Positions 1-15,574 of a stretch of DNA of 55,499 nucleotides are shown here, in pieces. The stretch comes from a virus. Its lineage: Duplodnaviria > Caudoviricetes. The stretch is from positions 1 through 55,499 of the IMG/VR virus record IMGVR_UViG_3300030207_002164, one strand, 5' to 3'. How positions within the stretch are numbered: position 1 is the stretch's first letter; every line of letters begins with the position of its first letter. Under the pieces are notes generated by a model. It was not told the origin of the DNA, did no database searches, and saw only the letters and a program-made list of their open reading frames with translations. The position numbers were made by a program, and so were the translations under genes.

Positions 1-1
1 C

Positions 2-61
2 TAAGTCATTCATTGTGAATGACGCAACTCCTGTTTGTGTTTTTGGTTTACGTTTATTCAT
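2..61 (-). CDS. 5' part of an early hypothetical protein (runs off the window)
   Basis: ATG at 61 overlaps the TAA of the upstream gene (TAATG coupling); open frame MNKRKPKTQTGVASFTMNDL to the window edge. Confidence 0.45.
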   Translation of the reverse strand, partial: MNKRKPKTQTGVASFTMNDL

Positions 62-333
62 TATCTCATATTTTGTGTGTTAATATCCCATTCGTCTAGT
101 ATGTCAAGCACTCTGTCGTGTACACATGGCGTGCCGTCATAGTCTACAAGTTCTTTGCCTTCAAACCATAACCCACCTTCTTCGTAATATAACATGCCAC
201 CTTCGTCTACATCGTATAACTCAAAGTGTCCGTACTCACGCTCTGTGTCTATGCTCACCTCTAATTGCATCTCTGCGTCCTTATCTAGTCTACCTATATC
301 TTGGGTAAATGTTATTCGTTTGTTGTATTTCAT
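61..333 (-). CDS. early hypothetical protein, acidic, 90 aa
   Basis: ORF track; ATGA-coupled to upstream gene; GGLWF..ELVDYDG-type motif seen in small phage proteins. Confidence 0.8.
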   Translation of the reverse strand: MKYNKRITFTQDIGRLDKDAEMQLEVSIDTEREYGHFELYDVDEGGMLYYEEGGLWFEGKELVDYDGTPCVHDRVLDILDEWDINTQNMR

Positions 334-518
334 ATCATTGTAATGTTTCCGTCCGTGTCTATGTAACCTGCATCGATCAGGGCTGATGCAGTTCGCCCGT
401 AGCTACCTTGTAGTTTCCACGCTTGACCACTACTGATTAGTTCAGCGAATAGTTCTAGCACTCCTGTGTCGTCTAAAAGACCACACTCGAATTGCATAAT
501 TTTGTCTACTAAATTCAT
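330..518 (-). CDS. small early protein with WxLQGxYGR motif (widespread phage family, function unknown)
   Basis: ORF track; motif AWKLQGSYGRTASALIDAGYI. Confidence 0.85.
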   Translation of the reverse strand: MNLVDKIMQFECGLLDDTGVLELFAELISSGQAWKLQGSYGRTASALIDAGYIDTDGNITMI

Positions 519-520
519 GA

Positions 521-619
521 TTAAAATTGTTCTTTTATTAGTTGTACTTTCTCTGTGTCTGTTAACTCATCGCTATCTAATATGTTGATTAGGTAGCACT
601 CAAATTCTTCTGTATTCAT
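521..619 (-). CDS. 32-aa early hypothetical protein (not in ORF track)
   Basis: MNTEEFECYLINILDSDELTDTEKVQLIKEQF; fills the gap, ATGA overlap with 616..873. Confidence 0.65.
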   Translation of the reverse strand: MNTEEFECYLINILDSDELTDTEKVQLIKEQF

Positions 620-873
620 GACGTTTGATTTAAGTATCTCTTCTTGATTGATGCGATGCGTTGCTCGTGGTCTCGGTAAAGCTCTTCGCATACCTTTCCG
701 TAATCATCACCCCTGTAGTCTCGGTAGTGTGATGCTAGTTCGTCCAACCACTCTGCCTCTGCTTGGTACTTTGATGAGTGGTATCTAGCGTCAATAATTT
801 GCTCCGCTAGTTGCTCTCGTGTGTAGTCTTGATTGACGATGTAGTCAATGCTTGATTGCTTGTATCTTTTCAT
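616..873 (-). CDS. early hypothetical protein, 85 aa
   Basis: ORF track; A-rich leader; co-oriented cluster. Confidence 0.8.
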   Translation of the reverse strand: MKRYKQSSIDYIVNQDYTREQLAEQIIDARYHSSKYQAEAEWLDELASHYRDYRGDDYGKVCEELYRDHEQRIASIKKRYLNQTS

Positions 874-891
874 GATGTATATTTTATTAGT

Positions 892-1134
892 TTATTCTTC
901 GTCATCTAAGTCTTTCCATTCTATGTCTGAACTACTCAACCTACCTTCGCAGTAGTCCACCGCCTCATCTAATGTGAGTAATGCTGTATGCCACCCACAA
1001 CTCATGCTATGTACTTCAAATTCACCATCTGAGTTTTTGTATAGTTCTTTTGTTGAGCGTAGTATTCCGTTAGAGAATACCACGTCTTTCATTTCGCCTG
1101 CCTTCATGGCAGTTAGTTGTTCTCGTGTACTCAT
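892..1134 (-). CDS. early hypothetical protein (start revised to MSTREQ)
   Basis: ATG at 1134 gives ATGA coupling with the stop of 1131..1370. Confidence 0.75.
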   Translation of the reverse strand: MSTREQLTAMKAGEMKDVVFSNGILRSTKELYKNSDGEFEVHSMSCGWHTALLTLDEAVDYCEGRLSSSDIEWKDLDDEE

Positions 1135-1370
1135 CGCTTTATTGCTTTTACTGATAAAATTTCTGTGTCGCATTGCTCAAGCTCTGCTTCGCCTAGCGTA
1201 TCCCATATCTCGTGGTATACGTCATCTTCAAAGCTCTTACCCTTTGTATCCCACTCAACTGTATTGCCTAGCGTTATTCTTTCAACGGCTGATGGCGATA
1301 GCTCGTCGGGTAAAGCTACCTCGATTGTGGTGGTGTATGTACGCACCACTTCTATTTCAAATGTTTTCAT
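1131..1370 (-). CDS. early hypothetical protein (start revised to MKTFEIEV)
   Basis: ATG at 1370 follows the AAACCAATAAAC leader and the stop of 1373..1498. Confidence 0.75.
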   Translation of the reverse strand: MKTFEIEVVRTYTTTIEVALPDELSPSAVERITLGNTVEWDTKGKSFEDDVYHEIWDTLGEAELEQCDTEILSVKAIKR

Positions 1371-1372
1371 GT

Positions 1373-1498
1373 TTATTGGTTTTTTGTCCATGTTTCGTAT
1401 GCAAAGTCTATTGCATCGTTGATTTCTATTGCCTCTTCACGAGTGATTGTGTACCCTTCCATGCGGTACACTTCGATAATGTTATCTATTACGTCCAT
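1373..1498 (-). CDS. 41-aa early hypothetical protein (not in ORF track)
   Basis: MDVIDNIIEVYRMEGYTITREEAIEINDAIDFAYETWTKNQ; first gene after the 1538-1569 promoter, double AAACCAA leader. Confidence 0.7.
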   Translation of the reverse strand: MDVIDNIIEVYRMEGYTITREEAIEINDAIDFAYETWTKNQ

Positions 1499-1537
1499 GA
1501 TGTATTAATTGGTTTTCGATTGGTTTGAATCGGTCTG

Positions 1538-1569
1538 CAAATATACAACAGACTTTTCCAAATTCCAAA
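1538..1569 (-). promoter_or_regulatory. Bacteroidota primary-sigma promoter (full -33/-7)
   Basis: Minus strand TTTG-N20-TATATTTG, matching TTTG-N19-21-TAnnTTTG, intergenic. Confidence 0.85.
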
Positions 1570-1592
1570 TTTATTTTTTAATAACGTAGTTA

Positions 1593-1928
1593 TTACTTGT
1601 ATCTATTGACTTTCTTAGCGTTCTCATCGTAGCAATTCCTCACCACCATACCCAACTGTTCAGCTGCATAGTTGATATGCCTAGATGTAGTAGGTGAGTG
1701 CCAGTCAGATACGACCAATGAACCTAGATTTTCTAGCCCCCATGCAACGTCAGTATCGTAGCTTTTAACGATGATTCGCCACCCATACGAGCCGTAATAC
1801 TCTTTGCGCACCGACAGATGCTGCTTGTACTTTGGCAAATCGATCTCGCGTGTATGTGGTACGCCCCACATGTATCCGTCATCACGATACATTTCGTAGT
1901 CGTGGTCTGCTCTTTCTAGTAATCCCAT
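1593..1928 (-). CDS. early hypothetical protein with SYxTxVA...SxTTxRH motif (widespread phage family)
   Basis: ORF track; KSYDTDVA...WHSPTTSRHIN. Confidence 0.85.
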   Translation of the reverse strand: MGLLERADHDYEMYRDDGYMWGVPHTREIDLPKYKQHLSVRKEYYGSYGWRIIVKSYDTDVAWGLENLGSLVVSDWHSPTTSRHINYAAEQLGMVVRNCYDENAKKVNRYK

Positions 1929-1930
1929 AT

Positions 1931-2074
1931 CTATTGGTATTTGTCAAGTTTAACATCGCTATATCCACGCACACTAAATTCGTTTGCAAGTTCAACGGCA
2001 TCGTCTAAGGTTAGTAGGTAGTCGTTTACTTCTGTACCGCCTACCCATACTGAGTATTTTCTTTCTGTATTCAT
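1931..2074 (-). CDS. 47-aa early hypothetical protein (not in ORF track)
   Basis: MNTERKYSVWVGGTEVNDYLLTLDDAVELANEFSVRGYSDVKLDKYQ; fills the gap exactly. Confidence 0.75.
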   Translation of the reverse strand: MNTERKYSVWVGGTEVNDYLLTLDDAVELANEFSVRGYSDVKLDKYQ

Positions 2075-2077
2075 TGG

Positions 2078-2221
2078 TTATTTGTTTTCTAGTTCAACAT
2101 TTTGGTAAGCATAGCACGCACCGTGCGCACCGCTTGAGCATGATGACATGCTGATGATTACAATAACGATTACTGCTATTGCGTAGGCACTCAAGCCCAT
2201 TGGTAGTAAATTATTTTTCAT
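2078..2221 (-). CDS. 47-aa predicted lipoprotein (not in ORF track)
   Basis: MKNNLLPMGLSAYAIAVIVIVIISMSS-CSSGAHGACYAYQNVELENK: hydrophobic h-region then lipobox-like MSS-C; AAACCAA leader. Confidence 0.75.
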   Translation of the reverse strand: MKNNLLPMGLSAYAIAVIVIVIISMSSCSSGAHGACYAYQNVELENK

Positions 2222-2240
2222 GTTTTATTGGTTTAATTTG

Positions 2241-2435
2241 TTAGAGATTCTTATGTTCATACATTGTCTTACAAACATATTCGTCAAACTCTTCTGCCAA
2301 GTATGCAATTGTGTCATCGTGTATGGCTACACTAAGTGTTTCCGTTACGTTGATGTATAACATACCCCCTAGCTCCTCGCTAGGTGTGTCGTGGTGTGCA
2401 TTAAGCACGAATGATGCTTTTTCTAATTGTGTCAT
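2241..2435 (-). CDS. early hypothetical protein, 64 aa
   Basis: ORF track; ATGA coupling. Confidence 0.75.
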   Translation of the reverse strand: MTQLEKASFVLNAHHDTPSEELGGMLYINVTETLSVAIHDDTIAYLAEEFDEYVCKTMYEHKNL

Positions 2436-2845
2436 AGTAATATTTCTTTTTGGTTTTTACAGTCGTAGATTGCGATTTCGCCACGTTTTTTTGCTATTTC
2501 CGTAGCTACGTCAAGGTTGTACAGATGTTGCACAAGGTCGAAGTATATCTGCCCTTCGTGTATCCATGTACCCACACCCAGTCCAGCAGAGTATGGGATA
2601 AGGTTGGGTTTGTGTTGGGGTAGTAGTATGTGATACTTATCCCATAGCTTTTTGAACGCTTTGAAGTGTGCGCTCACATCAGGGTATGCACTGCCGTCAA
2701 CCTCTGCGTACATAGTGGTTGGCTCAGTTACACCACCTACAATGTAACCTTCGGTTGGGTTGGTTATGCCATCTGCAAGGCTTGTATACCCACCGTCTAG
2801 TAGCGTGTTGATGTACGCTTGTCTGATTGTGTGGTCTTGTGTCAT
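2432..2845 (-). CDS. early protein with GxW...YxD...AIYD motif (possible distant SAM-lyase-like fold)
   Basis: ORF track; GGYT..PTEGYIVG and GVGTWIHEGQIYFD...RGEIAIYD; function is a guess. Confidence 0.75.
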   Translation of the reverse strand: MTQDHTIRQAYINTLLDGGYTSLADGITNPTEGYIVGGVTEPTTMYAEVDGSAYPDVSAHFKAFKKLWDKYHILLPQHKPNLIPYSAGLGVGTWIHEGQIYFDLVQHLYNLDVATEIAKKRGEIAIYDCKNQKEILL

Positions 2846-2991
2846 AGTGTTAATGCTTTAATGTAAGACTTGATTAGTTTCATGTAGCTGTAATCGTACA
2901 TGTAGGTAAGGTGCTTGATTTGCACATTCTTCGCAACGTGTATCTTCCTCCTGAGAAGATTAGCGATTCTGATTATGATAAATTTTTTCAT
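2842..2991 (-). CDS. 49-aa basic early protein (start revised to MKKFIII)
   Basis: ATG at 2991 directly follows the duplicated AAACCAA leader; ATGA coupling to 2432..2845. Confidence 0.6.
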   Translation of the reverse strand: MKKFIIIRIANLLRRKIHVAKNVQIKHLTYMYDYSYMKLIKSYIKALTL

Positions 2992-3334
2992 TGGTTTGAA
3001 AATATGTTTGGTTTGACATAGACTACCTTTAGGTAGTTTCGACCATTCAGGTCTCATCAGTATGCCTACCCTTCCTCGGACGTCCACCCAAGGTCATCGA
3101 ATAGTTTCTTGCCTCGCTCTACGCTTGGTTTACGGTACACCCTCATCGTCTTTGTGCTTGGCACATATTCGAACTTGGCTTCACCTTCGAACATCTCTGA
3201 CAGTCTACGACTGTAGTATTTTGCTTTTCTAGTGTTCCCATCTTTGATGGCTTGAGATAGACGTTGTACGAAGTACTCTGATTTTGGAAGTCTTTCCATG
3301 TGTAAAGGATTTTGGTTTGAAAAATGTTTGGTTT
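2991..3334. repeat. 23/24-nt direct repeat in leaders of two adjacent early genes
   Basis: TTGGTTTGAAAATATGTTTGGTTT (2991-3014) vs TTGGTTTGAAAAATGTTTGGTTT (3312-3334). Confidence 0.8.
3066..3299 (-). CDS. early hypothetical protein, 77 aa
   Basis: ORF track; double AAACCAA leader. Confidence 0.75.
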   Translation of the reverse strand: MERLPKSEYFVQRLSQAIKDGNTRKAKYYSRRLSEMFEGEAKFEYVPSTKTMRVYRKPSVERGKKLFDDLGWTSEEG

Positions 3335-3417
3335 AAGAGGGTTTGTATATATCTCTCTCTATATTCTATAGAGAGATATATACTAAACCTTCTAATAGCT
3401 CAGAGAGTTGAAACAGC

Positions 3418-3789
3418 TTATGCTGTTTGAGGCGCACCCTGCATAAGAGCTTTGCAGTATCTTACTGCATCATCAACTGAGTAGCCCATCGAACGAAGTT
3501 CGCTGAATTCAGGCAGCGTGTTCACCTCTGCAACCGACTCTGGAATGAAGTTTTCAGCTACCGACTGCTTTGCCTGAGACTCTTCGAGTCTCTGATTCTT
3601 TGGCCTGCGCTTAGAAGTCTTTGACTTTTTGCGCTTTGGCTTTGGCTTAACCTCTTCGAGGTTAGCAACTGCTTCAGTAAGCTCTTTTAAGAGCTTAACA
3701 GCAAGAGCCTTATGGCTCTTTGTCGGAGTGTACTTAGCTCTGTTGATTGCTTTCTTGCAATCTTTGATTGATTGGATAGAAATTTCCAT
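3418..3789 (-). CDS. Lys-rich first early protein, 123 aa, overprinted by hairpins
   Basis: ORF track; AAACCAA leader as in neighbours; basic central tract KPKPKRKKSKTSKRRPK. Confidence 0.65.
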   Translation of the reverse strand: MEISIQSIKDCKKAINRAKYTPTKSHKALAVKLLKELTEAVANLEEVKPKPKRKKSKTSKRRPKNQRLEESQAKQSVAENFIPESVAEVNTLPEFSELRSMGYSVDDAVRYCKALMQGAPQTA

Positions 3790-4433
3790 TGAAATTAGAT
3801 TTTGGTTTGGTGGCTGACTTCCAAAGCCACTTAGTAGTTAATTGAATTAAGAGAGAAGTCATAGACTTCCTTCTCTCTTAATTCTATAACTACAACTCTC
3901 TCCAACCTACGGAATCTTTGATTCTCAGTGCGTTGGCAATCAAGACTTGTACTCTTGCTTTAGCAAGATAGATTCTACTGATAATTGAATTGTCAATACA
4001 AAGATGTAATACTAAGCTACGCTTAGTATTAAAGCAATTACCAACAACAAATAAATGTCAATACTAAACCCCCTTATAGGGGGTAACTAGCTAGACTATT
4101 AGTCTAGGGGGGGTGATTGTCCCACTGCGTTGACTACCGATGTAAACTACAACCTAAACAAAAGCTACAAGTAGCTCAACGTAACACGCTGAACCCCAAG
4201 GGGTTAAATGTATACGCAAATCTAATCAAAGATTAGAGGGGGTAGGTCGGCAAAATGCGTTTCGGGTGCGACATGCTAGCGTTTTATATTATATATAATC
4301 CCCACCATATACATTTCTCGCCGTTTTTTCAAGGCGGCGCGGATCTGAATTGCGATGGTTACGCCACCTTTCCGTCCATAAACCATTGAGAAGCGGTAAA
4401 TTAGACCCATTTGCTTAAATTTATGCTTTACAC

Positions 4434-4464
4434 TTGACTTTTAAAAAAATATGTTATAACTTTG
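4434..4464 (+). promoter_or_regulatory. Bacteroidota promoter at start of rightward region
   Basis: TTG (4434-4436)-N20-TAACTTTG (4457-4464). Confidence 0.7.
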
Positions 4465-4558
4465 CTATCAAATAATATGCATTACAAAGCCAATCTAGAT
4501 GATTTTGGTGTTTGTACACAAGAAGCATTTAGAATGTTCAATACAGGATAGCTTTATC

Positions 4559-4687
4559 ATGATTGTAAAGAAAAAAGACGGGTATTATGTCGTATCCAAG
4601 AAAAAAAAGAACCTAGGCGGTCCCTATGGATCACGCCTTGCTGCTCTTAGAAGGCTAAGGCAGGTAGAATACTTCAAAAATAAGTAG
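4559..4687 (+). CDS. small basic phage protein, 42 aa (start revised)
   Basis: MIVKKKDGYYVVSKKKKNLGGPY...RLRQVEYFK pattern common in phage late regions. Confidence 0.7.
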   Translation: MIVKKKDGYYVVSKKKKNLGGPYGSRLAALRRLRQVEYFKNK

Positions 4688-4695
4688 TATATTTG
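4688..4695 (+). promoter_or_regulatory. -7 element TATATTTG (no clear -33)
   Basis: Consensus TAnnTTTG ending 3 nt before ATG 4699. Confidence 0.65.
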
Positions 4696-4698
4696 TAT

Positions 4699-5520
4699 AT
4701 GCCTAGAACAAAACGCAAAGACAAGAAGAACAAGAAGCGATATATTAGTGGGGGCTACATGAGTGTGGGCGATTTACTTCAAAAGGAAGGTATTGATCAA
4801 ACAACAACTAAATCTGAGTATCTTTCTATGGATAATTCACCTGGATTTTTGAATTTTGAAGAAAGGTATGCTCATATGCCAGGCAGTGAAGGTGGGTATA
4901 GTGCAAAAGAGTATAGAAAATTCAAAGACTTAGAACGCCAAGGCATCCCAGTTGATTCAGATAGATATGACTACCTCAAAACTGTGCATGACGAGAGAAC
5001 AAGAGCAACAGGGACTACCGCTTTAAACGTAGGTGCCATAGCTTTAGGTGCATATACTGGAAATACAGCTCTGATGCAGCAGGGTGTTACCAATATAGGT
5101 AATTACGCCATGGGTGAGATGGAGGAAACCAAAGCTGGAGGTCAAAACCCATATACAGGTGAGTATCTAGGTAGCGATCCCACTGGTCAAGAAATTCAGT
5201 TTGAAGAAGAGCTTGCTGGACAGTTAATGACATTTGTTCCTGCTATAGGCCAAGGCTCAGGCTCTACAAAATCGACAGAAACATCGCAGTCAGGCAATAT
5301 GGTTTATGGTCCAGCACCTTCAAAAACTACACGGCAGATTCAACAGGGTATTATACCCTCTGAAGCTACAACCGCATCAACTGGTAAGGGATCTTCCGTT
5401 AATACTCTTTTAAGTGCATTAAGTAGTCAAGGGACTTCATCGTCTAAACAAGGCAGTAGGTTGAGATACATACCCCGTAAATATGATTACATAAAAGGTA
5501 ATACCTTTGGCAAACAATAA
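4699..5520 (+). CDS. putative internal virion/cargo protein with basic N-terminus and YISGG motif
   Basis: ORF track (its TTG start lies inside the promoter element; ATG 4699 preferred); low-complexity S/T/G C-terminus. Confidence 0.75.
   Translation: MPRTKRKDKKNKKRYISGGYMSVGDLLQKEGIDQTTTKSEYLSMDNSPGFLNFEERYAHMPGSEGGYSAKEYRKFKDLERQGIPVDSDRYDYLKTVHDERTRATGTTALNVGAIALGAYTGNTALMQQGVTNIGNYAMGEMEETKAGGQNPYTGEYLGSDPTGQEIQFEEELAGQLMTFVPAIGQGSGSTKSTETSQSGNMVYGPAPSKTTRQIQQGIIPSEATTASTGKGSSVNTLLSALSSQGTSSSKQGSRLRYIPRKYDYIKGNTFGKQ
5502..5509 (+). promoter_or_regulatory. -7 element TACCTTTG
   Basis: Consensus match about 20 nt upstream of ATG 5529. Confidence 0.5.
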
Positions 5521-5528
5521 AAACAGTA

Positions 5529-5993
5529 ATGGCGACCCTAACAACAACCATAACAGAAGAGATAGTTCTTAACGGTAGAGACCGAGGATCTAGCAATGTA
5601 TTATCTATAGGTAGTGTAACGGAAGTATTGCACCGCATAGTAACGTGTCCTGCAAACGTAGACACTACAATTGCATCTTTTCAAGCTGCAGTTAATACTA
5701 GCGATGGCGCACTTGATCTAGATAACGTAAAGTACATTAGAGTAACAAACCTTGACTCAAGCAACCCTATAAATCTATCTTTGCAAATTGCGTTGGGTGA
5801 AGACGGTGCTGCAAATGCCTCTACTACTATACTTATAGCTGCAGGAAGGAGTTTTATTATGGGCTCACCTCACGATGGAATTGTTGTAGATGATGACGCA
5901 GCCACTATTGTTACAGGTTTAAATGATTTAGAAAGCTTATTAGTTGACCCATCAGCAAACAACGTATCTGTAGAGGTCTTTATCGCAAGTTAA
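5529..5993 (+). CDS. putative virion beta-sandwich protein, distant relative of the 22058-23684 paralogs
   Basis: MATLTTTITEEIVLNG start; YIRVTNLD motif resembles YIRN/YFKN/YIKN/YVKNLD. Confidence 0.8.
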   Translation: MATLTTTITEEIVLNGRDRGSSNVLSIGSVTEVLHRIVTCPANVDTTIASFQAAVNTSDGALDLDNVKYIRVTNLDSSNPINLSLQIALGEDGAANASTTILIAAGRSFIMGSPHDGIVVDDDAATIVTGLNDLESLLVDPSANNVSVEVFIAS

Positions 5994-6004
5994 AATATAT
6001 AATT

Positions 6005-6682
6005 ATGTTTATAAAAAAGAAAAATATGATGATGCGTGGCGACAAAATGAAAGCCATGATGAAATACCTCACAGGTGGTCAAGTAAAATTAGACAAAAAT
6101 AAAGACGGAAAGATCAGCGGAGCAGATTTTAAAATGATGATGGGTGGATCCAAGATGGGATACGCGAAGGGTGGTAAGACTGACCCTCCGAAACAAGGTA
6201 CTCCACCTGTAAGAACTTGGGATGAAGGTATGCACAAAGAATATATAGAGTACATTTTTGATCCAACACCTGAAAATAAGCCAGATTGGTATTTTGGAGA
6301 TATTGATATTGAAGGTAATCCAGTTGATACAACTGGGACATCGCTGCCTTATATTGGTCCTGGAGGAGCAGGATATAAAGAAGGAGATGAAGATATTTAC
6401 AGAAGGGCCACTGGTATAACACCGCAGCAAAGACCCGCTAAAGTACCAGTAGAGAAGATTGTAGGTAAAAAAGGCATGAGGATGAAGTACATGAAGGGTG
6501 GAGATATGAAGTATATGGGGGGTGGAGATATGAAGTATATGCAAGGTGGAGATATGGAGGCTGCAGCTATGCAAGGCCAACAAATGGAAGCACCGTCTCG
6601 TATGGATCAAATTAAAGAAATGATTATGAGCCTTAGTGACGACGAAAGAGCTATGGTTGCTCAACTTCTAAGCGAGCGTTGA
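6005..6682 (+). CDS. Met/Lys/Gly-rich putative internal virion protein with EF-hand-like loop and YxxGG repeats
   Basis: DKNKDGKISGADF; six (Y/M)xxGG motifs. Confidence 0.8.
   Translation: MFIKKKNMMMRGDKMKAMMKYLTGGQVKLDKNKDGKISGADFKMMMGGSKMGYAKGGKTDPPKQGTPPVRTWDEGMHKEYIEYIFDPTPENKPDWYFGDIDIEGNPVDTTGTSLPYIGPGGAGYKEGDEDIYRRATGITPQQRPAKVPVEKIVGKKGMRMKYMKGGDMKYMGGGDMKYMQGGDMEAAAMQGQQMEAPSRMDQIKEMIMSLSDDERAMVAQLLSER
6482..6553 (+). repeat. 3 x 24-nt in-frame tandem repeat (MKYMxGGD)
   Basis: ATGAAGTA(C/T)ATG-nnn-GGTGGAGAT three times. Confidence 0.9.
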
Positions 6683-6798
6683 GAAAAAAATATTTTAACA
6701 CAAAGAAAAAACGAAAAGATCCAGCAATAGAAGCTGAAAAAATAAGACTCAATAAAATTAAAAATGAAGCTAGAAGTAATAAGATTCAACAAAGGTGA
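6679..6798 (+). CDS. possible 39-aa basic protein (not in ORF track)
   Basis: TTG start overlapping upstream TGA; MRKKYFNTKKKRKDPAIEAEKIRLNKIK...; fills the gap. Confidence 0.4.
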   Translation: MRKKYFNTKKKRKDPAIEAEKIRLNKIKNEARSNKIQQR

Positions 6799-9507: not shown

Positions 9508-9672
9508 ATGGCAAAATCAAAAGGCTTAGGAGACTCAATAGAAAAAATAACTAAAGCAACAGGAATAAAGGCTTTGGTTGAAAAATACACTCGCCCTCGC
9601 GGTGGATGCGGTTGCGAGAAGAGAAAAGATAAATTAAATAAAATGTTCCCATATAAAAATGAAAACGTATGA
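9508..9672 (+). CDS. 54-aa GLGD...CGC protein (not in ORF track)
   Basis: MAKSKGLGDSIEKITKATGIKALVEKYTRPRGGCGCEKRKDKLNKMFPY, a recurrent phage small-protein motif. Confidence 0.85.
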   Translation: MAKSKGLGDSIEKITKATGIKALVEKYTRPRGGCGCEKRKDKLNKMFPYKNENV

Positions 9673-10255
9673 TTTATTTGTTGTCAAATTAGAAAGCACA
9701 ACAAAAGACACATTAGTTACAGACAGCGGTCTTGAGCTATATATAGACACTTCTTTTAATGAATTTGAGCACCGAACCACTGAAGGTCCAGTAGTGTGTG
9801 TTCCTTTTAAGTATGATACAGGGGTTGAAGTTGGAGACACATTGTATTTTCACCACCTGGTAGTTATGGGTGGAAATAACGATGGGCAGATATTTACAGA
9901 AGAAGACAATACCTACATAGTAAAGTACGATCCTAAGTTTGCGATAGCTAATCAAGCCATAGCATATAAAAGTCAAAAAGATGGTAAGATACGATGTCTT
10001 ACAGGGTGGTGTTTGTTAAAGCCTGTAGAGCAAGAAGAATTAAATCTTCACTCTGACATTATAGAGGTGGTAGACAATAGTGAAAAACTCCCAACAAAAG
10101 GAGAGGTGGCTTATTTATGTAAAGAAGGAGAGGAAATGGGGTTAGAGCCTGGCGATATTGTTGGGTTTAAAGAGAACAGAGATTACCGCCTAACCATAGA
10201 TGGTCAAGAATACTACCGCACACGTGCAGAAGATTTATACGGGGTCTATGTCTAA
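9659..10255 (+). CDS. groES: co-chaperonin GroES-like protein with two tandem GroES domains
   Basis: TDSGLEL..GPVVCVP..VEVGDTLYF and second unit WCLLKPVE..KGEVAY..LEPGDIVGF..IDGQEYYR. Confidence 0.8.
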   Translation: MKTYDLFVVKLESTTKDTLVTDSGLELYIDTSFNEFEHRTTEGPVVCVPFKYDTGVEVGDTLYFHHLVVMGGNNDGQIFTEEDNTYIVKYDPKFAIANQAIAYKSQKDGKIRCLTGWCLLKPVEQEELNLHSDIIEVVDNSEKLPTKGEVAYLCKEGEEMGLEPGDIVGFKENRDYRLTIDGQEYYRTRAEDLYGVYV

Positions 10256-10797: not shown

Positions 10798-10983
10798 ATG
10801 GCTGACTATAAGTGCGAATGCAATGAACATGAATTAGAATGTTCTAATGTTGTTATTAGAATAATAGAAGGTAAGGCTACACACGACATTAAATGTCCTT
10901 GCGGTAAATATATGAAGCTGTCAAACCCGAAAACAGGCATTGCCTCTCTTGGAAGAATGGACAGGAATGGTAGTAGTTACTAA
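10798..10983 (+). CDS. zinc-ribbon protein (FmdB-like)
   Basis: YKCECNEH...IKCPCGKYM. Confidence 0.75.
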   Translation: MADYKCECNEHELECSNVVIRIIEGKATHDIKCPCGKYMKLSNPKTGIASLGRMDRNGSSY

Positions 10984-13103
10984 TGTCTGCATTACTAAAT
11001 CTAGAAGAATATGAGGACCCTGCTGTCAAGATTTGTCCCAACGGTACGGAAGGTGAGATTATTGAACTCGGTGGGTTACTCATTTGCCTTCCAAAAAGGC
11101 CGCCGAAGAAACAAATTTTCGGACATAAAGAATCAAACTCTATGCAAATGTGGAGAAGGGTATCTATGCCGAAGGAACTGTCTCGTGTTAAATCTATGGA
11201 TGAGTGGGCGGAAATGCCAAGGGAGTTCAGAGAGAGGTTTCGTCCATATATCGAGGAAGAGTTTAGGCGTAGGCGTGAGGGTTTTTGGTTTTATAACAAC
11301 GGTACAGCTACATATATTACGGGGCGGCATTACATGATGCTACAATGGACCAAGCTAGATATTGGTTATCCATACTTTCTTAACTTTCAACGTGAAATCT
11401 TTTTACACATGGCTGCATGCGAAGCTGATCCACGTTGCATTGGTCAGCTTTATACTAAGTGCCGTCGTTCTGGGTATACTAATATATGCTCTGCAGTGCT
11501 TGTTGACGAAGCCACACAAGTTAAAGACAAACTTATGGGTATACAGTCGAAAACTGGTAAGGACGCTCAAGAGAATATTTTCATGAAGAAAGTAGTTTAC
11601 ATGTTTAGAAACTACCCATTCTTCTTCAAACCTATACAAGATGGTACAACTAATCCACGTATGGAGTTAGCTTTTAGGGAGCCATCAAAGCGTATCACTA
11701 AAAAGAACAAAACATCGCAGACAGGTGAGGCGCTTAATACTGTTATAAACTGGAAAAACACAACTAACAACGCATACGATGGTGAAAAGCTACACATATT
11801 GTATTTAGATGAGGCAGGAAAATGGGAAAAACCTACAGACATAAGAGACGCTTGGAGGATTCAGAGGACTTGTTTGATCGTCGGGCGAAAAATAGTCGGA
11901 AAAGCACTCGTGGGAAGCACGGTAAATCCGATGGACAAAGGAGGAAGTCAGTACAAAGATTTATGGAAGGATTCGGATCCGACAGAGAGGAATGCGAATG
12001 GTAGAACCAGATCTGGTTTGTATAGGCTGTTTATACCAGCATACGACTCACTAGAAGGTTTTTTTGATATATACGGGAACCCAGTAATCAACAATCCAGA
12101 CTCAGATGTAATGGGGGTAGATGGAGAACCAGTAATCGTTGGGGCAAAAACTTATTTAAAGAATGAGAGAGAATCTTTAAAAGAAGATGCATCTGAATTA
12201 AATGAGGTTATAAGACAATTTCCATTTACAGAAGATGAAGCTTTTAGAGATAGTATTGAGGGGAGCTTATTTAACGTAGGTAAAATATATGAACAGATTC
12301 AGTACAATGATGAGCTGTTTCCAAACCCAGTTGTAGTTGGTAATTTTGTATGGAAAAACGGAGAAAAAGACACGGAGGTTTTGTTTAGGCCCGATCCTAA
12401 TGGAAGATTTAGAGTTGCTTGGATACCACCAGAAGGTGTGAGAAATCAAAAGTCAACAGATAGGGGTAAAAGAGTACCGCCTAACTCTCATATAGGTTGT
12501 GGAGGTGTCGACTCCTATGATCTTGATTCTACAGTTGATGGAAGGGGGTCTAAGGGTTCTTTACATTTATACAACAAATTTAACATGGAGTATCCTTCAA
12601 ACACTTTTGTCTTGGAGTATGCATCTCGTCCACCTCTTGCAAAAATCTTTTATGAGGATGTTCTTATGGCTGCAGTTTTTTATGGTTATCCTATATTAAT
12701 TGAAAACAACAAGTACGGTATAGCAAGATACTTTGAGTCAAGGGGTTATGATGGTTACTTAATGGATAGGCCTGAGCATTTAAAAGCTCCAAACTCAAAA
12801 GTCAATGTAAAAACTAAAGGCATACCCTCAAACTCTCAAGATGTAATTCAGTCTCACGCTCAATCTATTGAAGCTTACATACACGCGCACGTTGGTATAA
12901 ATAGAGATTCTGGTGAATATGGTAGTATGTATTTTAACAGAACTCTTGAAGATTGGATAGGTTTTAAAATAGATAATAGAACAAAATTTGACCTTACAAT
13001 AAGCTCTGGTTTGGCTCTTTTGGCTTCTCAAAAAACTAAACCAAAACAAAAAACTAACTTTGCTGAGAAGAAGTTTTTTAGGAGATATAATGTGATCGGT
13101 TGA
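10983..13103 (+). CDS. terL: terminase large subunit
   Basis: Walker A KCRRSGYT, Walker B LYLDEAGK, coupling GST, nuclease GGVDSYD and C-terminal FDLTISSG. Confidence 0.95.
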   Translation: MSALLNLEEYEDPAVKICPNGTEGEIIELGGLLICLPKRPPKKQIFGHKESNSMQMWRRVSMPKELSRVKSMDEWAEMPREFRERFRPYIEEEFRRRREGFWFYNNGTATYITGRHYMMLQWTKLDIGYPYFLNFQREIFLHMAACEADPRCIGQLYTKCRRSGYTNICSAVLVDEATQVKDKLMGIQSKTGKDAQENIFMKKVVYMFRNYPFFFKPIQDGTTNPRMELAFREPSKRITKKNKTSQTGEALNTVINWKNTTNNAYDGEKLHILYLDEAGKWEKPTDIRDAWRIQRTCLIVGRKIVGKALVGSTVNPMDKGGSQYKDLWKDSDPTERNANGRTRSGLYRLFIPAYDSLEGFFDIYGNPVINNPDSDVMGVDGEPVIVGAKTYLKNERESLKEDASELNEVIRQFPFTEDEAFRDSIEGSLFNVGKIYEQIQYNDELFPNPVVVGNFVWKNGEKDTEVLFRPDPNGRFRVAWIPPEGVRNQKSTDRGKRVPPNSHIGCGGVDSYDLDSTVDGRGSKGSLHLYNKFNMEYPSNTFVLEYASRPPLAKIFYEDVLMAAVFYGYPILIENNKYGIARYFESRGYDGYLMDRPEHLKAPNSKVNVKTKGIPSNSQDVIQSHAQSIEAYIHAHVGINRDSGEYGSMYFNRTLEDWIGFKIDNRTKFDLTISSGLALLASQKTKPKQKTNFAEKKFFRRYNVIG

Positions 13104-13138: not shown

Positions 13139-15574
13139 ATGATCAGCAATTCAAGTTATCGTAGTGGTGGTAAGTTTCCTGATCCTTTGGTATCAAAAGA
13201 TATTAAGGATGATGTGGCATACGGTTTAAAGTATGCGAAGGCAATAGAAAGTCAATGGAACGCTACTAATGAAGAAAATTCGCTGCAAGAGAAAAGAAGA
13301 AGAACTTTTGAAAGAAACAGGGATTATGCACAAGGGGTGCAAAACACAACAATCTATAAAAGACTTTTAACTTCTTTAGATCCAAATGCAGGAGATGGTA
13401 GTTTATTAAACCTTGACTACACGCCAGTTCCAATACTACCAAAATTTGTAAGAATTGTTGTAAATAAAATTTTATCAAGAAACCCTTATCCAAATTTAGA
13501 GGCAATAGATCCTCTTTCTTCCTCTGAAAAAGACAGAGAGAAAAATCGCTTGAGAATGCAGGTAGCGATGAAGGATGAGCTAAAGAAATTAAAACAAGAA
13601 ACTGGAGGTTTGGTTTTGGATAAAGATCCAGAATCTCTTCCAGACACGCTAGAGGAGGCTGAAATATTTTTAGAGACTAATGTGAAGACTGACGCAGAAA
13701 TATCTGCGCAGATTGCAACAGCAATGACTCTTTCTTGGAATAACTTTAATGACGGCACGTTCAGAAGATGCGTAAATGATCTTGCAGCTCTAGGCATGGC
13801 TGTTGTTAAAAGACATAATGATCCTAATTATGGCATAACAACAGAATATGTAGATCCCTGTAAGTTTATCCATAGCTACACAGAAGATCCTAATTTTGAC
13901 GACATAACTTACGCTGGTAGCATTAGAACAATACCTATTCAAGAGCTAAAAAGATTAGCTGGGGATCAGCTTACAGAGGAGGATTACAAAAAAATTGCTA
14001 AGAAAGCAAAAGGAAACAAGTCTGATGCTTATCAGTCAAACTATGATCCAGCAACAAAAAGAAGCGGTTATGGTTATGATGATCACACCGTTCAAATATT
14101 AGACTTTGAATTCTTATCTGTTGATTGTATGTTTTTTGAAGAAAAAACAAATAGACACGGAAACACAAACTTTTTTTATGAGGGGTATTCTTATAAAGAA
14201 AAGTTAAACAGCATGACTGAGCGTATTGCTCATAAGATGGATGTCACTACTGTTTATGAAGGTATGTACATTATGGGAACTGACTATGTTATCAACTACG
14301 GTCAGAAACACAATATTCCAAAAAATATTCACGACATAAGCAAAGCTAAACTTTCTTATTCTGTTGTTGCTACAAATATTGGTAAAATGATGCCTAAATC
14401 TATGGTAGATAGCTGCATAGGTTTTGCTGATATGCTTCAGATTACACACTTAAAGATACAGCAGGCTATTGCTAAAGCTAAGCCAGATGGGTTGATTATT
14501 GATATTGAAGGTCTTGAAGGTGTTGAAATAGGAAAAGGCGGTGAGTTACAGCCACTTGATCTTCATGATATATACGAGCAGACTGGTGTATTCTACTACA
14601 GAAGCAAGAATGCTGAGGGTGGATTCCAAAACCCACCTATACGTGAGATAGGAAACACTATACGTAATATTAATGAGCTTATTGCATTATACAATCACTA
14701 CCTAAGATTAATAAGAGATGCAACAGGTATTAATGAAGCCATGGACGCTTCCTCTCCAAAAGGTGAAGATCTTGTTGGAGTTAGAGAGCAAGCTATAGCT
14801 GCTGGAAACAATGCTATATATGATATTACAAACGCTTCTATGATTCTATACAAAAAGGTTTGCGAGGACGTTGTAAAGTGTTTACAGATTATACCTCCAG
14901 ACTCTACTTTAAGAACAATTTATGAAAATGCTATAGGTAAAGAGAACATGAAGGTTTTATCTTCTTTCTCTGATTTACCTATGTATAATTTTGGAGTGCA
15001 GGTTCATAAAGAAATGGAATCTGCAGAGAAGCAATACTTAGAGCAAAGTATACAAATAGCTTTGGGCCAGAAGGAGCTTGACCTTGAAGACGCTATGATG
15101 ATAAGAAGCATGAAAGATATCAATCAAGCTGAAAGACTTCTTGTAGTAAAAAGAAAGAAAAGGCAGAAAGAGCAGCAGCAGATGGCGCAGCAAAACTCTC
15201 AAATGCAGCAACAGCAAGCTCAGCAAACTGCACAGCAAGGCGCTCAACTTAAGCAGCAAGAAATGCAGCTGCAAGCTCAGCTTGATGCACAGCAAGTTCA
15301 AATTAAAGCACAGGCAGAAATACAAGTTGCTACGGCGCTTCATGAGTTACATAAAGAGATTGAAACTATTAAAGCTCAAGCAACTCTAGGATTCAAGACT
15401 GATGATCAAGAGTTCAAAGAAAAAATTGAAGTTTTGAAGGAAGATAGAAAAGACGATAGGCTTATGGTACAGACTGGTCAACAGAGAGCTCTGCAGAATG
15501 AAAGAATGAATATGCAATCGCCTCAACAAAATATTAATGCTGACGAACTAATTGATAACGCACTAAATAATTAA
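13139..15574 (+). CDS. portal protein
   Basis: 811 aa after terL; PVPILPKFV, RDATGINEAMD motifs; Gln-rich C-terminal coiled barrel typical of podovirus portals. Confidence 0.9.
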   Translation: MISNSSYRSGGKFPDPLVSKDIKDDVAYGLKYAKAIESQWNATNEENSLQEKRRRTFERNRDYAQGVQNTTIYKRLLTSLDPNAGDGSLLNLDYTPVPILPKFVRIVVNKILSRNPYPNLEAIDPLSSSEKDREKNRLRMQVAMKDELKKLKQETGGLVLDKDPESLPDTLEEAEIFLETNVKTDAEISAQIATAMTLSWNNFNDGTFRRCVNDLAALGMAVVKRHNDPNYGITTEYVDPCKFIHSYTEDPNFDDITYAGSIRTIPIQELKRLAGDQLTEEDYKKIAKKAKGNKSDAYQSNYDPATKRSGYGYDDHTVQILDFEFLSVDCMFFEEKTNRHGNTNFFYEGYSYKEKLNSMTERIAHKMDVTTVYEGMYIMGTDYVINYGQKHNIPKNIHDISKAKLSYSVVATNIGKMMPKSMVDSCIGFADMLQITHLKIQQAIAKAKPDGLIIDIEGLEGVEIGKGGELQPLDLHDIYEQTGVFYYRSKNAEGGFQNPPIREIGNTIRNINELIALYNHYLRLIRDATGINEAMDASSPKGEDLVGVREQAIAAGNNAIYDITNASMILYKKVCEDVVKCLQIIPPDSTLRTIYENAIGKENMKVLSSFSDLPMYNFGVQVHKEMESAEKQYLEQSIQIALGQKELDLEDAMMIRSMKDINQAERLLVVKRKKRQKEQQQMAQQNSQMQQQQAQQTAQQGAQLKQQEMQLQAQLDAQQVQIKAQAEIQVATALHELHKEIETIKAQATLGFKTDDQEFKEKIEVLKEDRKDDRLMVQTGQQRALQNERMNMQSPQQNINADELIDNALNN

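Follow-up and report, generated by a model that had tools for sequence, protein, structure and literature searches.

Single DNA mini-hairpins are already known at a few initiation sites, namely the N4 promoters, the G4 origin and RSF1010 ssiA. The telomeres of Streptomyces linear replicons carry several packed palindromes (about seven) with C·G-closed GNA-type triloops, which fold one single-stranded tail and stand at physical 3' ends capped by terminal protein. Palindromes are likewise tied to DNA entry or genome ends in the T5 injection stop and the T7 terminal repeat; the T7 repeat has two hairpins only, a 7-bp C·G-closed TTC hairpin and CCCCC-ATA-GGGGG, and the annotated T5 injection-stop region holds 5 (at least 7 bp) or 11 (at least 6 bp) hairpins per 1.2 kb, with one sequence reused three times. 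Physiological superhelicity is sufficient to extrude the hairpins of the N4 promoters, which have 5-7 bp and a sheared G:A loop, and of their two strands only the weak-loop one is melted by SSB (PMC4496689). Similarly, it is reported that DNA mini-hairpins bind SSB poorly, that d(GCGAAGC) melts at 76.5 °C compared to 39 °C for r(GCGAAAGC), that RSF1010 ssiA contains a CCGAAGG mini-hairpin, and that GNA/GNNA mini-hairpins exclude SSB and mark priming at the G4/St-1/alpha3 complementary-strand origins and at RSF1010 ssiA/ssiB (PMC13037366). Finally, TIGR stem-loop arrays, which are found in phages, are variable in sequence and consistently palindromic (PMC12045711).

Here, a mini-hairpin array is described in a marine Bacteroidota phage and its relatives, in which about 20-30 perfect tiny stems lie within ~1.3 kb where the early genes begin; this large, strand-polar array is without close precedent, and no description of such an array was found in the open-access literature. 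Compared to the Streptomyces telomeres, it is internal as far as the assemblies show, has more hairpins and is partly coding. Its likeness to the N4 early promoters lies in stem and loop geometry, the C·G closing pair and the early-region location, and would extend to extrusion and SSB strand discrimination as described for N4 (PMC4496689). However, N4 has three promoters with shared conserved bases, whereas the 20-30 hairpins here have unrelated stems, and the first 8 kb of N4 reach at most 6 (at least 7 bp) or 9 (at least 6 bp) hairpins per 1.2 kb, compared to 13 and 19 in the sequence studied here. The G4/St-1/alpha3/RSF1010 origins, in turn, have one to three non-coding hairpins of defined sequence, in contrast to a dense 1.3-kb array that is largely genic; a further likeness to such primase origins is that relatives of this phage also encode a primase-helicase (G002, together with a DnaA_C protein).

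The window, that is, the whole 55,499-nt stretch of DNA that was analysed (IMG/VR record IMGVR_UViG_3300030207_002164), was scanned for perfect hairpins, and 13 of the 34 with a stem of at least 7 bp and a loop of 2-5 fall in 3022-4237. In 1000 dinucleotide shuffles, the corresponding number was 0.34 (maximum 4). For perfect stems of at least 6 bp with loops of 2-8, the count is 19 compared to 2.1 +/- 1.5 in the shuffles (maximum 7), and for stems of at least 5 bp with loops of 2-5 it is 28 compared to 5.0 (maximum 15). Sliding windows of 1216 bp over the 55.5 kb contain 3.4 hairpins on average (sd 2.8). Thus, the array stands far above both the shuffles and the genome background, and the impression of the first-pass annotation that the window holds nothing comparable elsewhere is borne out, the runner-up outside the array having 9 hairpins. 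In addition, the single-stranded DNA fold gives z = -6.7 for the plus strand of 3790-4330 and z = -11.6 for the minus strand of 3000-3800. All 23 inverted repeats that had been listed lie where they had been placed, including the 5-bp stems at 3490-3502, 3615-27 and 3912-24, and their stems indeed have no common sequence. As hairpins, these 23 are present, but 3503-12 is a palindrome that lacks a loop, and the loop of 3810-30 measures 9 nt. The location at a divergence point is also correct, with ORFs on the minus strand up to 3789 and on the plus strand from 4499. Rfam and tRNA scans gave no match above threshold, and a search for direct repeats or iterons in 2800-4700 found short two-copy families only. 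Terminator-like sites number 9 compared to 1.6 expected; intrinsic termination was rejected as the role of the array, most hairpins being without a T-run and inside ORFs, although single hairpins, e.g., 3345-83 between two genes, may still terminate transcription. The coordinates of the features are collected in Table 1.

Table 1. Coordinates in the window of the hairpins, genes and conserved sites at the array locus.
Feature	Coordinates	Strand	Details
Left (coding) array half	3022..3796	minus	Defined by hairpin coordinates, shuffles, loop polarity and DNA fold
Left-half hairpins, first part	3022-37, 3200-14, 3345-83, 3411-28, 3453-69, 3490-3502		3345-83 intergenic, perfect core 3354-76
Left-half hairpins, second part	3576-92, 3615-27, 3648-64, 3678-97, 3703-20, 3745-62, 3781-96		
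First early gene, 123 aa	3418..3789	minus	10 homologues
Second early ORF, 77 aa	3066..3299	minus	Carries hairpin 3200-14; homologous ORF in L136
Third small ORF, putative	2842..3087	minus	ATG at 3057 gives 71 aa; carries hairpin 3022-37
Central long palindrome, ATA loop	3844..3884	none	Arms 15-17 bp, nested GAAGTC-ATA-GACTTC
Right (non-coding) array half	3912..4237	none	Defined by coordinates, shuffles and DNA fold
Right-half hairpins	3912-24, 3953-68, 4007-31, 4068-84, 4091-4107, 4163-76, 4192-4205, 4221-37		
Near-palindromic operator-like block	3979..3999	none	Invariant in the window, L001 and L002
G-run, then conserved box 1, ATTGTCCCAC (4116-4125)	4107..4125	plus	Single occurrence in the window
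Second G-run, variable hairpin around CGTTTCGG, AT-rich stretch, box 2	4238..4305	plus	
Conserved box 2, TATATAATCCCCAC	4292-4305	plus	Followed by a T-run; array ends here
Rightward promoter-like site, conserved (TTGAC ... TAACTTTG)	4434..4464	plus	Precedes the plus-strand late block

The array is not an intergenic field: some two thirds of it falls within conserved early genes that encode proteins. The first early protein has 10 homologues with 27-79% identity and 17 invariant columns, and in its layout two helices form a conserved N-terminal domain, followed by a basic linker and a C-terminal domain that is small and helical; searches of Pfam, PHROG, PDB sequences and Foldseek gave no match, that is, no known family or fold. 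The coding nature of 3022-3789 is absent from the first-pass annotation. In the window, the first early gene contains 6 hairpins of at least 6 bp compared to 1.3 after codon shuffling. In the 10 homologues, 106 hairpins are found, compared to 15.0 on average and never more than 29 over 500 synonymous codon shuffles, and therefore selection acts at the nucleotide level; the left-half hairpins are written into genuine genes through codon choice. The loops fall in codon phases 0, 1 and 2 in 36, 8 and 31 cases, and thus they are not phase-locked. In one relative (L068), the array at the same position overlies a different gene.

In the pooled hairpins (n = 307), stems of 6, 7 and 8 bp occur 113, 135 and 46 times, triloops account for 181, and 187 are closed by 5'C-G3' and 92 by T-A; the T-A-closed cases mostly have 2-nt loops, and these are readable as C·G-closed tetraloops. 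The commonest loop is TTC (n = 62), and in the left half C·G-closed TTC leads the triloop classes (n = 45). Since TTC on the plus strand is GAA on the sense strand, the array displays the defining feature of a DNA mini-hairpin, a 5'C...G3' pair closing a G-N-A loop on one strand, and most left-half hairpins have the stable GNA/GAA loop version on the minus (sense) strand; the earlier reading of cGAAg and cGTAg loops on that strand was correct. On the plus strand of the left half, TNC loops outnumber GNA loops 65 to 9 (12 arrays pooled), and C·G- or T·A-closed TTC outnumbers C·G-closed GAA 59 to 2, whereas base composition would give a TTC:GAA ratio of about 1.7. On the plus strand of the right half, the pooled counts are 15 GNA versus 5 TNC and 27 versus 5 for purine-rich loops, but these numbers are small, come mainly from one subgroup and could partly reflect the A-richness of that strand, and the window's own right-half loops are mixed (ATA, TTT, TAC, TAT, ATT, AAA). 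The polarity switches near the first early start codon, strongly to the left and weakly to the right. Only 21 hairpins with a single mismatch occur in 9 arrays, including 3 with G·T and 2 with A·C, so that no G·U excess exists, and stem extension by wobble pairs was not seen. In general, the C·G-closed GNA triloops and the near-pure Watson-Crick stems without wobble excess fit the DNA mini-hairpin rather than RNA, consistent with PMC13037366 and with the chemistry that had been proposed at first.

This bears on an RNA-level function, in which the hairpins would fold the early mRNA and its leader, shielding them from host RNases or RNA-guided defence or tuning translation. A stable loop version on the sense strand of early genes is what one would most simply expect of an RNA element, and the observed sense-strand polarity is equally predicted by such a function. 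In addition, the hairpins cover 15-47% of the length of the first early gene, and TTAC loops on the plus strand (n = 15) become, in the coding half, GUAA in the transcript, which is a GNRA loop. However, triloops dominate instead of the tetraloops that are stable in RNA, G·U pairs are practically absent, the GAA mini-hairpin is much less stable as RNA (PMC13037366), and the hairpins extend upstream of the first gene, where leftward transcription is unable to cover all of them. We consider an RNA-level function unlikely, while giving it some weight.

The same loops speak to the question of whether the locus is a field of N4-like hairpin promoters, as had been suggested, where an injected RNA polymerase would use extruded single-stranded DNA. 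The geometric part of this suggestion stands, as the array has the 5-7 bp stems and 3-nt loops of sheared G:A type that characterise N4 promoters. Only in the non-coding right half (15 versus 5) do purine-centred loops lie on the strand that leftward early transcription would use as template; in the coding half, the stable GNA loop is on the non-template strand, which is the opposite of N4, whose sequence reads TTC/TCC on the coding strand. The phage does encode giant virion-type proteins, and the crAss-like polymerase gp66 is reported to use single-stranded DNA only and to have early promoters with no shared motif (bioRxiv 10.1101/2020.03.07.982082). On the other hand, no virion polymerase was found in this phage: the C-terminal third of the 2900-aa protein is of DarB type, for the 2381-aa protein a similarity to crAss muzzle proteins (score 0.87) provides no more than a lead, and PF00940 has no match in five genomes (G000-G004), with control genomes likewise unmatched. 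The motif D[FY]DxD is absent from both proteins, and DxDxD is absent from the 2381-aa protein and occurs twice in the 2900-aa protein, as DHDND at 867 and DVDLD at 1019. Moreover, the hairpins have no conserved bases and, apart from G-runs, no common flanking triplet, the first 12 kb of the crAss-like phage phi14:2 has no such array (AT-rich background palindromes only), and 20-30 promoters within one gene are implausible. Such a promoter field is very unlikely.

An array is present at the same position in at least 11 related IMG/VR phage contigs (L136, L122, L001, L002, L109, L033, L027, L025, L100, L037 and L068), upstream of the same conserved motif. In the first five of these, 11.7-19.3 hairpins per kb occur in the array compared to 0.9-1.7 in the flanks, and relatives reach 22 hairpins of at least 7 bp per 1.2 kb. 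By comparing the window with L001 and L002, compensatory stem changes were identified at 3912, 3953, 4007, 4068, 4091 and 4221, and right-half compensatory changes were also found against L136. The covariation score is 0.159 compared to 0.124 in shuffled data (reached by 0 of 500 shuffles) and 0.05-0.11 in slid controls, in a MAFFT alignment in which only 63.5% of cells pair; the number of further pair types does not exceed the shuffles (42 versus 44.7, with 413 of 500 reaching the observed value), and template-switch mutagenesis could imitate compensatory change. In short, position and pairing are kept in related genomes while stem sequences differ, which supports the first-pass view of a structure element as opposed to a set of operators. 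Beyond this group, the more distant cultured relatives MW202828.1 and Flavobacterium phage elemoA have no array, and since they replicate without it, the array does not represent a core origin. No GenBank phage matched 2400-6400 in blastn. The public runs examined all consist of contigs from DNA metagenomes, sampled in marine, seawater or estuary settings.

The manner in which the hairpins change could also point to a functionless by-product, formed where an often single-stranded region gains palindromes that template-switch repair then perfects. The perfect pairing with very few intermediates is consistent with this, as are the loop inversions between the close relatives L001 and L002 (AAA/TTT, TT/AA) and the turnover of hairpins, the -155 hairpin of the relatives being missing in the window, which has one at -129 instead. 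However, the C·G-closed GAA loop and its strand polarity require selection, the hairpins are maintained against coding constraints, and the position and density of the array are kept in relatives in which the flanking gene 4693-5520 shows only 33-38% protein identity and the first early protein is 27-40% identical to that of the window. A by-product without function is thus hardly probable.

The same loop inversions would fit extruded cruciforms that are bound or cut by a structure-specific protein, which organises the region or makes breaks for recombination-dependent replication. The protein could be a junction resolvase, a host HU-like protein or the first early protein, the last of which is basic, helical and encoded under the array. 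One relative (G002) has a PDDEXK exonuclease and a weak T7 endonuclease I-like match (E 4.5e-4, below the Pfam cut-off). On the other hand, this endonuclease match is below threshold, the first early protein belongs to no known DNA-binding family or fold, and a symmetric cruciform role leaves the strong loop polarity unexplained, so we regard a cruciform target as improbable. The same relative also encodes a DnaB-type primase-helicase and a protein with a DnaA C-terminal HTH, and no polymerase was seen among its ten scanned early proteins. A giant DarB-like LPD38 protein is present in G000-G003 and G005 and absent in G004, which bears the array, as well as in two array-less genomes; the array and the LPD38 protein are therefore not strictly linked.

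Tandem palindromes of varying sequence in phage genomes also recall TIGR arrays, which are variable palindromes in phages as well (PMC12045711). In such an array, stem-loop guide RNAs with variable palindromes between dual spacers would be used by a Tas (Nop-domain) protein. The gaps between right-half hairpins do cluster, 44 of 75 being 25-50 nt, but those of the left half are irregular (median 20 nt, 60 of 174 under 15 nt). The Tas Nop-domain protein, dual 8-12-nt spacers, box C/D and non-coding RNA gene that TIGR arrays need were not found here: the Nop family PF01798 has no match at E<=1 in 5 genomes whereas 5 control genomes matched, none of the scanned flanking proteins matches Tas/Nop (Tas proteins being remote homologues, a sequence search can miss them), no box C/D-like flanks were seen around the hairpins, the sequences between hairpins are conserved blocks instead of spacers, and the left half is a conserved protein-coding gene. 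A TIGR-type array has next to no likelihood.

The central palindrome is directly upstream of the first early start codon, and its position and loop are kept in all arrays, while its arms show compensatory changes and indels. To its right, a non-coding control region of ~0.45 kb under the array reaches a unique conserved box pair. Half-sites GTCAATAC, related to the operator-like block, occur at 4056 and 4535 (repeat families D8, D11 and D18). Boxes 1 and 2 are each unique in their genome; box 2 is invariant in 12 arrays, 11 of which were, however, found by searching with the box 2 motif. With one copy in the window, the conserved 14-mer was ruled out as a repeated phage promoter. The rightward promoter-like site matches what we take to be the Bacteroidota -33/-7 promoter consensus.

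Since the 1.6 kb upstream of the motif include the ends of 14 related contigs, and the array is 0-3.4 kb from the contig end in four relatives that are 98-100% complete, the locus might be thought to mark a genome end, whether as first-injected DNA, an injection stop, a packaging site or a terminal repeat with folding single-stranded tails. The two T7 terminal-repeat hairpins of the same type and the moderately palindrome-rich T5 injection-stop region would be precedents. However, the array is single-copy in the complete relatives, for which IMG/VR records no end repeats, and among public Logan contigs from 4 runs, the assembled contigs of one (X1) tile across it as 2788-3329, 3300-3583 and 3575-6795. 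The contig break points are not homologous, ranging from -4.5 kb to +1.1 kb. The contig ends of G002 fall within tandem paralogues of 84% identity, and strain indels are frequent in the early region; these repeats and indels therefore explain the assembly breaks, and the clustered contig ends were dismissed as evidence of a genome end. Logan contig depth differences are unusable as a sign of a terminal repeat because several strains are summed. The earlier proposal of a genome end or packaging site thus finds no support in the public contigs or the complete relatives, and we consider it quite improbable.

Based on the results presented above, our tentative preference is that the array is a strand-opening element for early transcription and/or replication priming, beside the unique conserved box pair. 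What would act is a clade-specific, strand-polar set of ~7-bp Watson-Crick stems with C·G-closed GAA/GNA triloops, overlying ~0.8-1.3 kb at the beginning of the leftward early operon and the non-coding control region. When supercoiling after entry, early transcription or origin unwinding underwinds or opens the duplex, the sense strand, which is non-template and equally lagging-template, would snap into stable mini-hairpins resistant to SSB and nucleases. The complementary strand would be left single-stranded and usable as template, since it has only the weak TTC-loop versions. With the sense strand in hairpins and the template free, the start of the early region would be held open, which may serve early transcription and/or replication priming via an R-loop or primase. 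The array, its conservation, the nucleotide-level selection, the DNA-type loop chemistry and the strand polarity are demonstrated, whereas hairpin formation in vivo, the opening process and the initiated event are inferred. It should be added that, with an origin at the boxes, the right-half polarity of the L109 group would be wrong for a leftward fork. An origin and a protective shield, both among the roles proposed at first, are further candidates. A bolder and rather unlikely form of the proposal is self-opening DNA, in which the sense strand of the supercoiled region zips away in the cell and exposes ~1 kb of template, so that structure alone would start transcription or replication.

A conserved array inside coding sequence would show that DNA secondary structure can be a selected large-scale feature of double-stranded DNA phages. 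It would also show that DNA structure can constrain protein evolution, a constraint that, if true, is strong enough to shape the encoded amino-acid sequence, and that strand opening can be encoded by structure alone. The array would further be a defined, easily cloned object for studying cruciform extrusion, SSB discrimination and R-loop or priming mechanisms. Finally, it may account for how infection starts in a widespread group of marine Bacteroidota phages.

The inverted repeats that the first-pass annotation had listed at 3022-4237 are all present in the window, and their density exceeds both dinucleotide shuffles and the genome background. Counting perfect hairpins with stems of at least 6 bp and loops of 2-8 nt, 19 are found in 3022-4237, compared to 2.1 in dinucleotide shuffles (maximum 7, n=1000); with stems of at least 7 bp and loops of 2-5 nt, the array holds 13 of the window's 34, compared to 0.34 in shuffles (maximum 4). 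Elsewhere in the window, the mean is 3.4 hairpins per sliding window and the maximum is 9. Folding as single-stranded DNA gives z = -6.7 for 3790-4330 (plus strand) and z = -11.6 for 3000-3800 (minus strand). By comparison with the 13 (at least 7 bp) and 19 (at least 6 bp) hairpins of the window, the N4 early region reaches a maximum of 6 and 9 per 1.2 kb, and the T5 injection-stop region has 5 and 11; the first 1.4 kb of N4 contains 9 hairpins of at least 6 bp. The T7 terminal repeat (L161) carries two mini-hairpins in the style of the array (26-38 and 66-82, copies at 39803-39859), one of which is a 7-bp C·G-closed TTC triloop.

Relatives were retrieved through the first late gene and two conserved non-coding motifs. 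In each of 11 related phage contigs (L136, L122, L001, L002, L109, L033, L027, L025, L100, L037 and L068), 9-22 hairpins of at least 7 bp occupy the 1.2-1.5 kb directly upstream of the motif TATATAATCCCCAC; since this motif served as the query for these arrays, its invariance is partly by construction. In the first five, hairpins of at least 6 bp number 11.7-19.3 per kb in the array versus 0.9-1.7 in the flanks; L143, L003 and the L004 group have weaker arrays, with 5-9 per kb. No array was found in the more distant cultured relatives MW202828.1 and elemoA, where at most 7 hairpins occur per 1.2 kb and at other genome positions, or in the first 12 kb of the crAss-like phage phi14:2.

The compensatory changes that the first-pass annotation had looked to in relatives were found. 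Between the window and L001/L002, two-arm changes restore pairing at 3912, 3953, 4007, 4068, 4091 and 4221, and in the long central palindrome (3844-3884), the ATA loop is retained and the arms differ by paired changes and indels. The covariation score is 0.159 versus 0.124 in shuffles (0/500 reach it; slid controls 0.05-0.11); it was computed from 7 sequences aligned with MAFFT, and the count is blurred by register shifts, with only 63.5% of cells pairing; in the same alignment, the number of further pair types was not above shuffles. The L109 group has unrelated stems at fixed offsets from the motif, e.g. -70, and hairpins also turn over, in that the -155 hairpin of relatives is missing in the window, which has a -129 hairpin instead. 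At offsets -69 and about -785, L001 and L002 share the same stems with inverted loops (AAA vs TTT and TT vs AA), as palindrome-mediated loop inversion would produce. In L136, L122, L143 and L003, the central hairpins give way to a G+C-rich segment that lies between the first early gene and the operator-like block and contains repeats of GCATGAC-like units; it could serve as an alternative module for regulation or initiation.

A TIGR stem-loop array, a system described in PMC12045711, is hardly conceivable here: the Nop domain had no match in five genomes, with control genomes matched, the gaps between hairpins are irregular, box motifs were not seen, and about half to two thirds of the array lies in coding sequence. 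The first early gene (3418-3789) is a real gene: ten homologues are 27-79% identical to it, and 17 columns are invariant among them, within an N-terminal domain of some 50 residues that precedes a basic linker. The structure predicted for its product (mean pLDDT 75.5) has a helical hairpin joined through a linker to a small helical domain, and no family or fold match was found in Pfam, PHROG, PDB sequence or Foldseek searches. The ten homologues contain 106 hairpins of at least 6 bp; when synonymous codons are shuffled gene by gene, 15.0 remain on average (maximum 29, 500 trials); hairpins cover 15-47% of the first early genes, and triloops start in codon phases 0/1/2 in 36/8/31 cases. In L068, a different, acidic protein is encoded at this position by an equally hairpin-rich gene, and therefore the hairpins are tied to position, not protein. 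A TTTGGTTTG-rich repeated cassette (families D2 and D3; 2985-3020, 3293-3340 and 3783-3810) lies directly upstream (minus strand) of every small early start codon and could be a translation signal, a promoter signal or a shuffling cassette.

The loop types favour DNA over RNA, and one strand over the other. Among 307 hairpins pooled from 12 arrays (two array pairs are closely related and the counts non-independent), 181 have triloops, 187 are closed by 5'C-G3' and 92 by T-A, the latter mostly formal 2-nt loops equivalent to C·G-closed tetraloops, and the most frequent loop is TTC (62). On the plus strand of the left, coding half, TNC triloops outnumber GNA by 65 to 9, and C·G- or T·A-closed TTC outnumbers C·G-closed GAA by 59 to 2, against a TTC:GAA ratio of about 1.7 expected by calculation from base composition; the early genes thus have the stable C-GAA-G form on their sense strand. 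The plus-strand bias is reversed in the right, non-coding half (GNA 15 vs TNC 5; all-purine 27 vs all-pyrimidine 5), a reversal that is less marked, owes most to the L109 group and is not apparent in the window taken alone. On neither strand do wobble pairs lengthen the stems, and one-mismatch hairpins are rare, with 21 in 9 arrays, of which only 3 are G·T and 2 A·C. According to PMC13037366, d(GCGAAGC) melts at 76.5 C, compared to 39 C for r(GCGAAAGC), mini-hairpins of this type resist nucleases and bind SSB poorly, and natural cases include G4-type origins, RSF1010 ssiA and N4 promoters. A role of the hairpins at the RNA level predicts the same sense-strand polarity and for this reason ranks as the main rival; we consider it unlikely. 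Intrinsic terminators are disfavoured as a general account: terminator-like sites number 9 versus 1.6 expected, but most hairpins lack a T-run and lie inside ORFs.

The N4-type hairpin promoters suggested in the first-pass annotation hold for geometry, which is the same in the array, but not for polarity: N4 has TTC/TCC on the coding strand and the purine loop on the template strand, the reverse of the array's coding half, and no conserved promoter bases are common to the array hairpins. No RNA polymerase was found in motif and similarity searches of the two giant proteins, or with PF00940 in the genomes G000-G004, where controls were also without a match. We regard an N4-type promoter field as scarcely likely.

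Features around the array and in the rest of the window
Feature	Position	Strand	Remarks
Operator-like block	3979-3999		near-palindromic; invariant in window, L001 and L002
Conserved non-coding block	array's right edge		in order: G-run and box 1; second G-run; variable hairpin; AT-rich stretch with TATATAATCCCCAC; T-run
Box 1	4116-4125		ATTGTCCCAC
Box 2	4292-4305		TATATAATCCCCAC; inside AT-rich stretch
Promoter-like site	4434-4464	rightward	TTGAC...TAACTTTG
GroES-like co-chaperonin gene	9659-10255	+	precedes terminase
Large terminase gene	10983-13103
Portal gene	13139-15574
2381-aa virion protein	32649-39794	+	crAss 'muzzle'-like by language-model features, score 0.87, lead only
2900-aa protein	45177-53879	+	LPD38 domain
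Ribonucleotide reductase gene	54317-55498	-	truncated by contig end

Minus-strand small ORFs reach 3789, and the plus-strand late block begins at about 4499. Boxes 1 and 2 each occur once in the window and once in the complete relative G002, and the promoter-like site is of what we take to be the Bacteroidota -33/-7 type. The non-coding stretch 4240-4560 is 75-87% identical in L136, L143, L133, L122, L001, L002, L003 and the L004 group; the adjoining late protein (4693-5520) is only 33-38% identical in L001-L007. For an intergenic block, such conservation is unusually strong. The early operon of G002 begins at the array, runs for about 18 kb and encodes a BT4734_N/DnaB_C primase-helicase, a DnaA C-terminal HTH protein, a PDDEXK nuclease and, by a sub-threshold match, an endonuclease I-like protein; a scan of ten G002 early proteins revealed no DNA polymerase.

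Many related contigs stop close to the array, where a genome end had been proposed. However, among the Logan contigs compared (4 runs), those in X1 tile across the array, four complete relatives have a single array copy and no end repeats, the G002 contig ends fall in 84%-identical tandem paralogues, and strain indels are abundant in the early region. On this contig evidence, a genome end here is very improbable, and the contig breaks are taken as assembly effects. Near both G002 contig ends (L170 1-1600; L173), several 80-360-nt segments are repeated at 80-90% identity; a related element of about 80 nt, found with the L037 array as query, occurs close to the 46-aa acidic early ORF of L037, and the segments may be paralogues of this gene family. 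In contigs from four marine metagenome runs, window 1-2500 has many variants, with alternative forms in which entire small ORFs are missing (e.g. 55-330, 894-1142 and 1898-2218); the early region is strain-hypervariable.

The window, a whole IMG/VR-type virus record of 55.5 kb, is 86% complete (CheckV) and also encodes virion proteins. Crassvirales records are weak matches of its terminase, which, with the features of the 2381-aa protein, suggests a distant crAss-like podophage lineage of about 60-65 kb. By terminase, the closest GenBank relatives are MW202828.1 (50% identity) and Flavobacterium phages elemoA/E (42%). The C-terminal ~900 aa of the 2900-aa protein resemble DarB-like antirestriction proteins (P1-type, Bcep22, Stx, Vibrio and Ralstonia phages), with no assignment for the N-terminal 2000 aa; giant LPD38 proteins are present in G000-G003 and G005 and absent from G004, MW202828.1 and elemoA. 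A CHU_C type IX secretion domain was found in one relative.

That initiation sites can carry single mini-hairpins is established; for a conserved, polar array of 20-30 running through genes, no description was found in the open literature. Over nearly the whole first kilobase of the early operon, the sense strand is able to fold into mini-hairpins of unusual stability; the template strand over the array has weak hairpins only. In N4 (PMC4496689), physiological superhelicity suffices for short hairpins with a G:A loop to extrude, and SSB melts the weak strand only. By analogy, we tentatively propose, as a possible reading, that the array would trap the sense strand as hairpins, leaving the template strand open, and that the open template would promote early transcription and/or replication priming, via an R-loop or primase, beside the box pair; both hairpin formation in vivo and the process that would use the hairpins are inferred. 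For type III CRISPR adaptation, non-template DNA that forms hairpins at early phage genes has been put forward as a preferred substrate (PMC8860593 and PMC13575424), which would be a cost to note for a strand-opening array.
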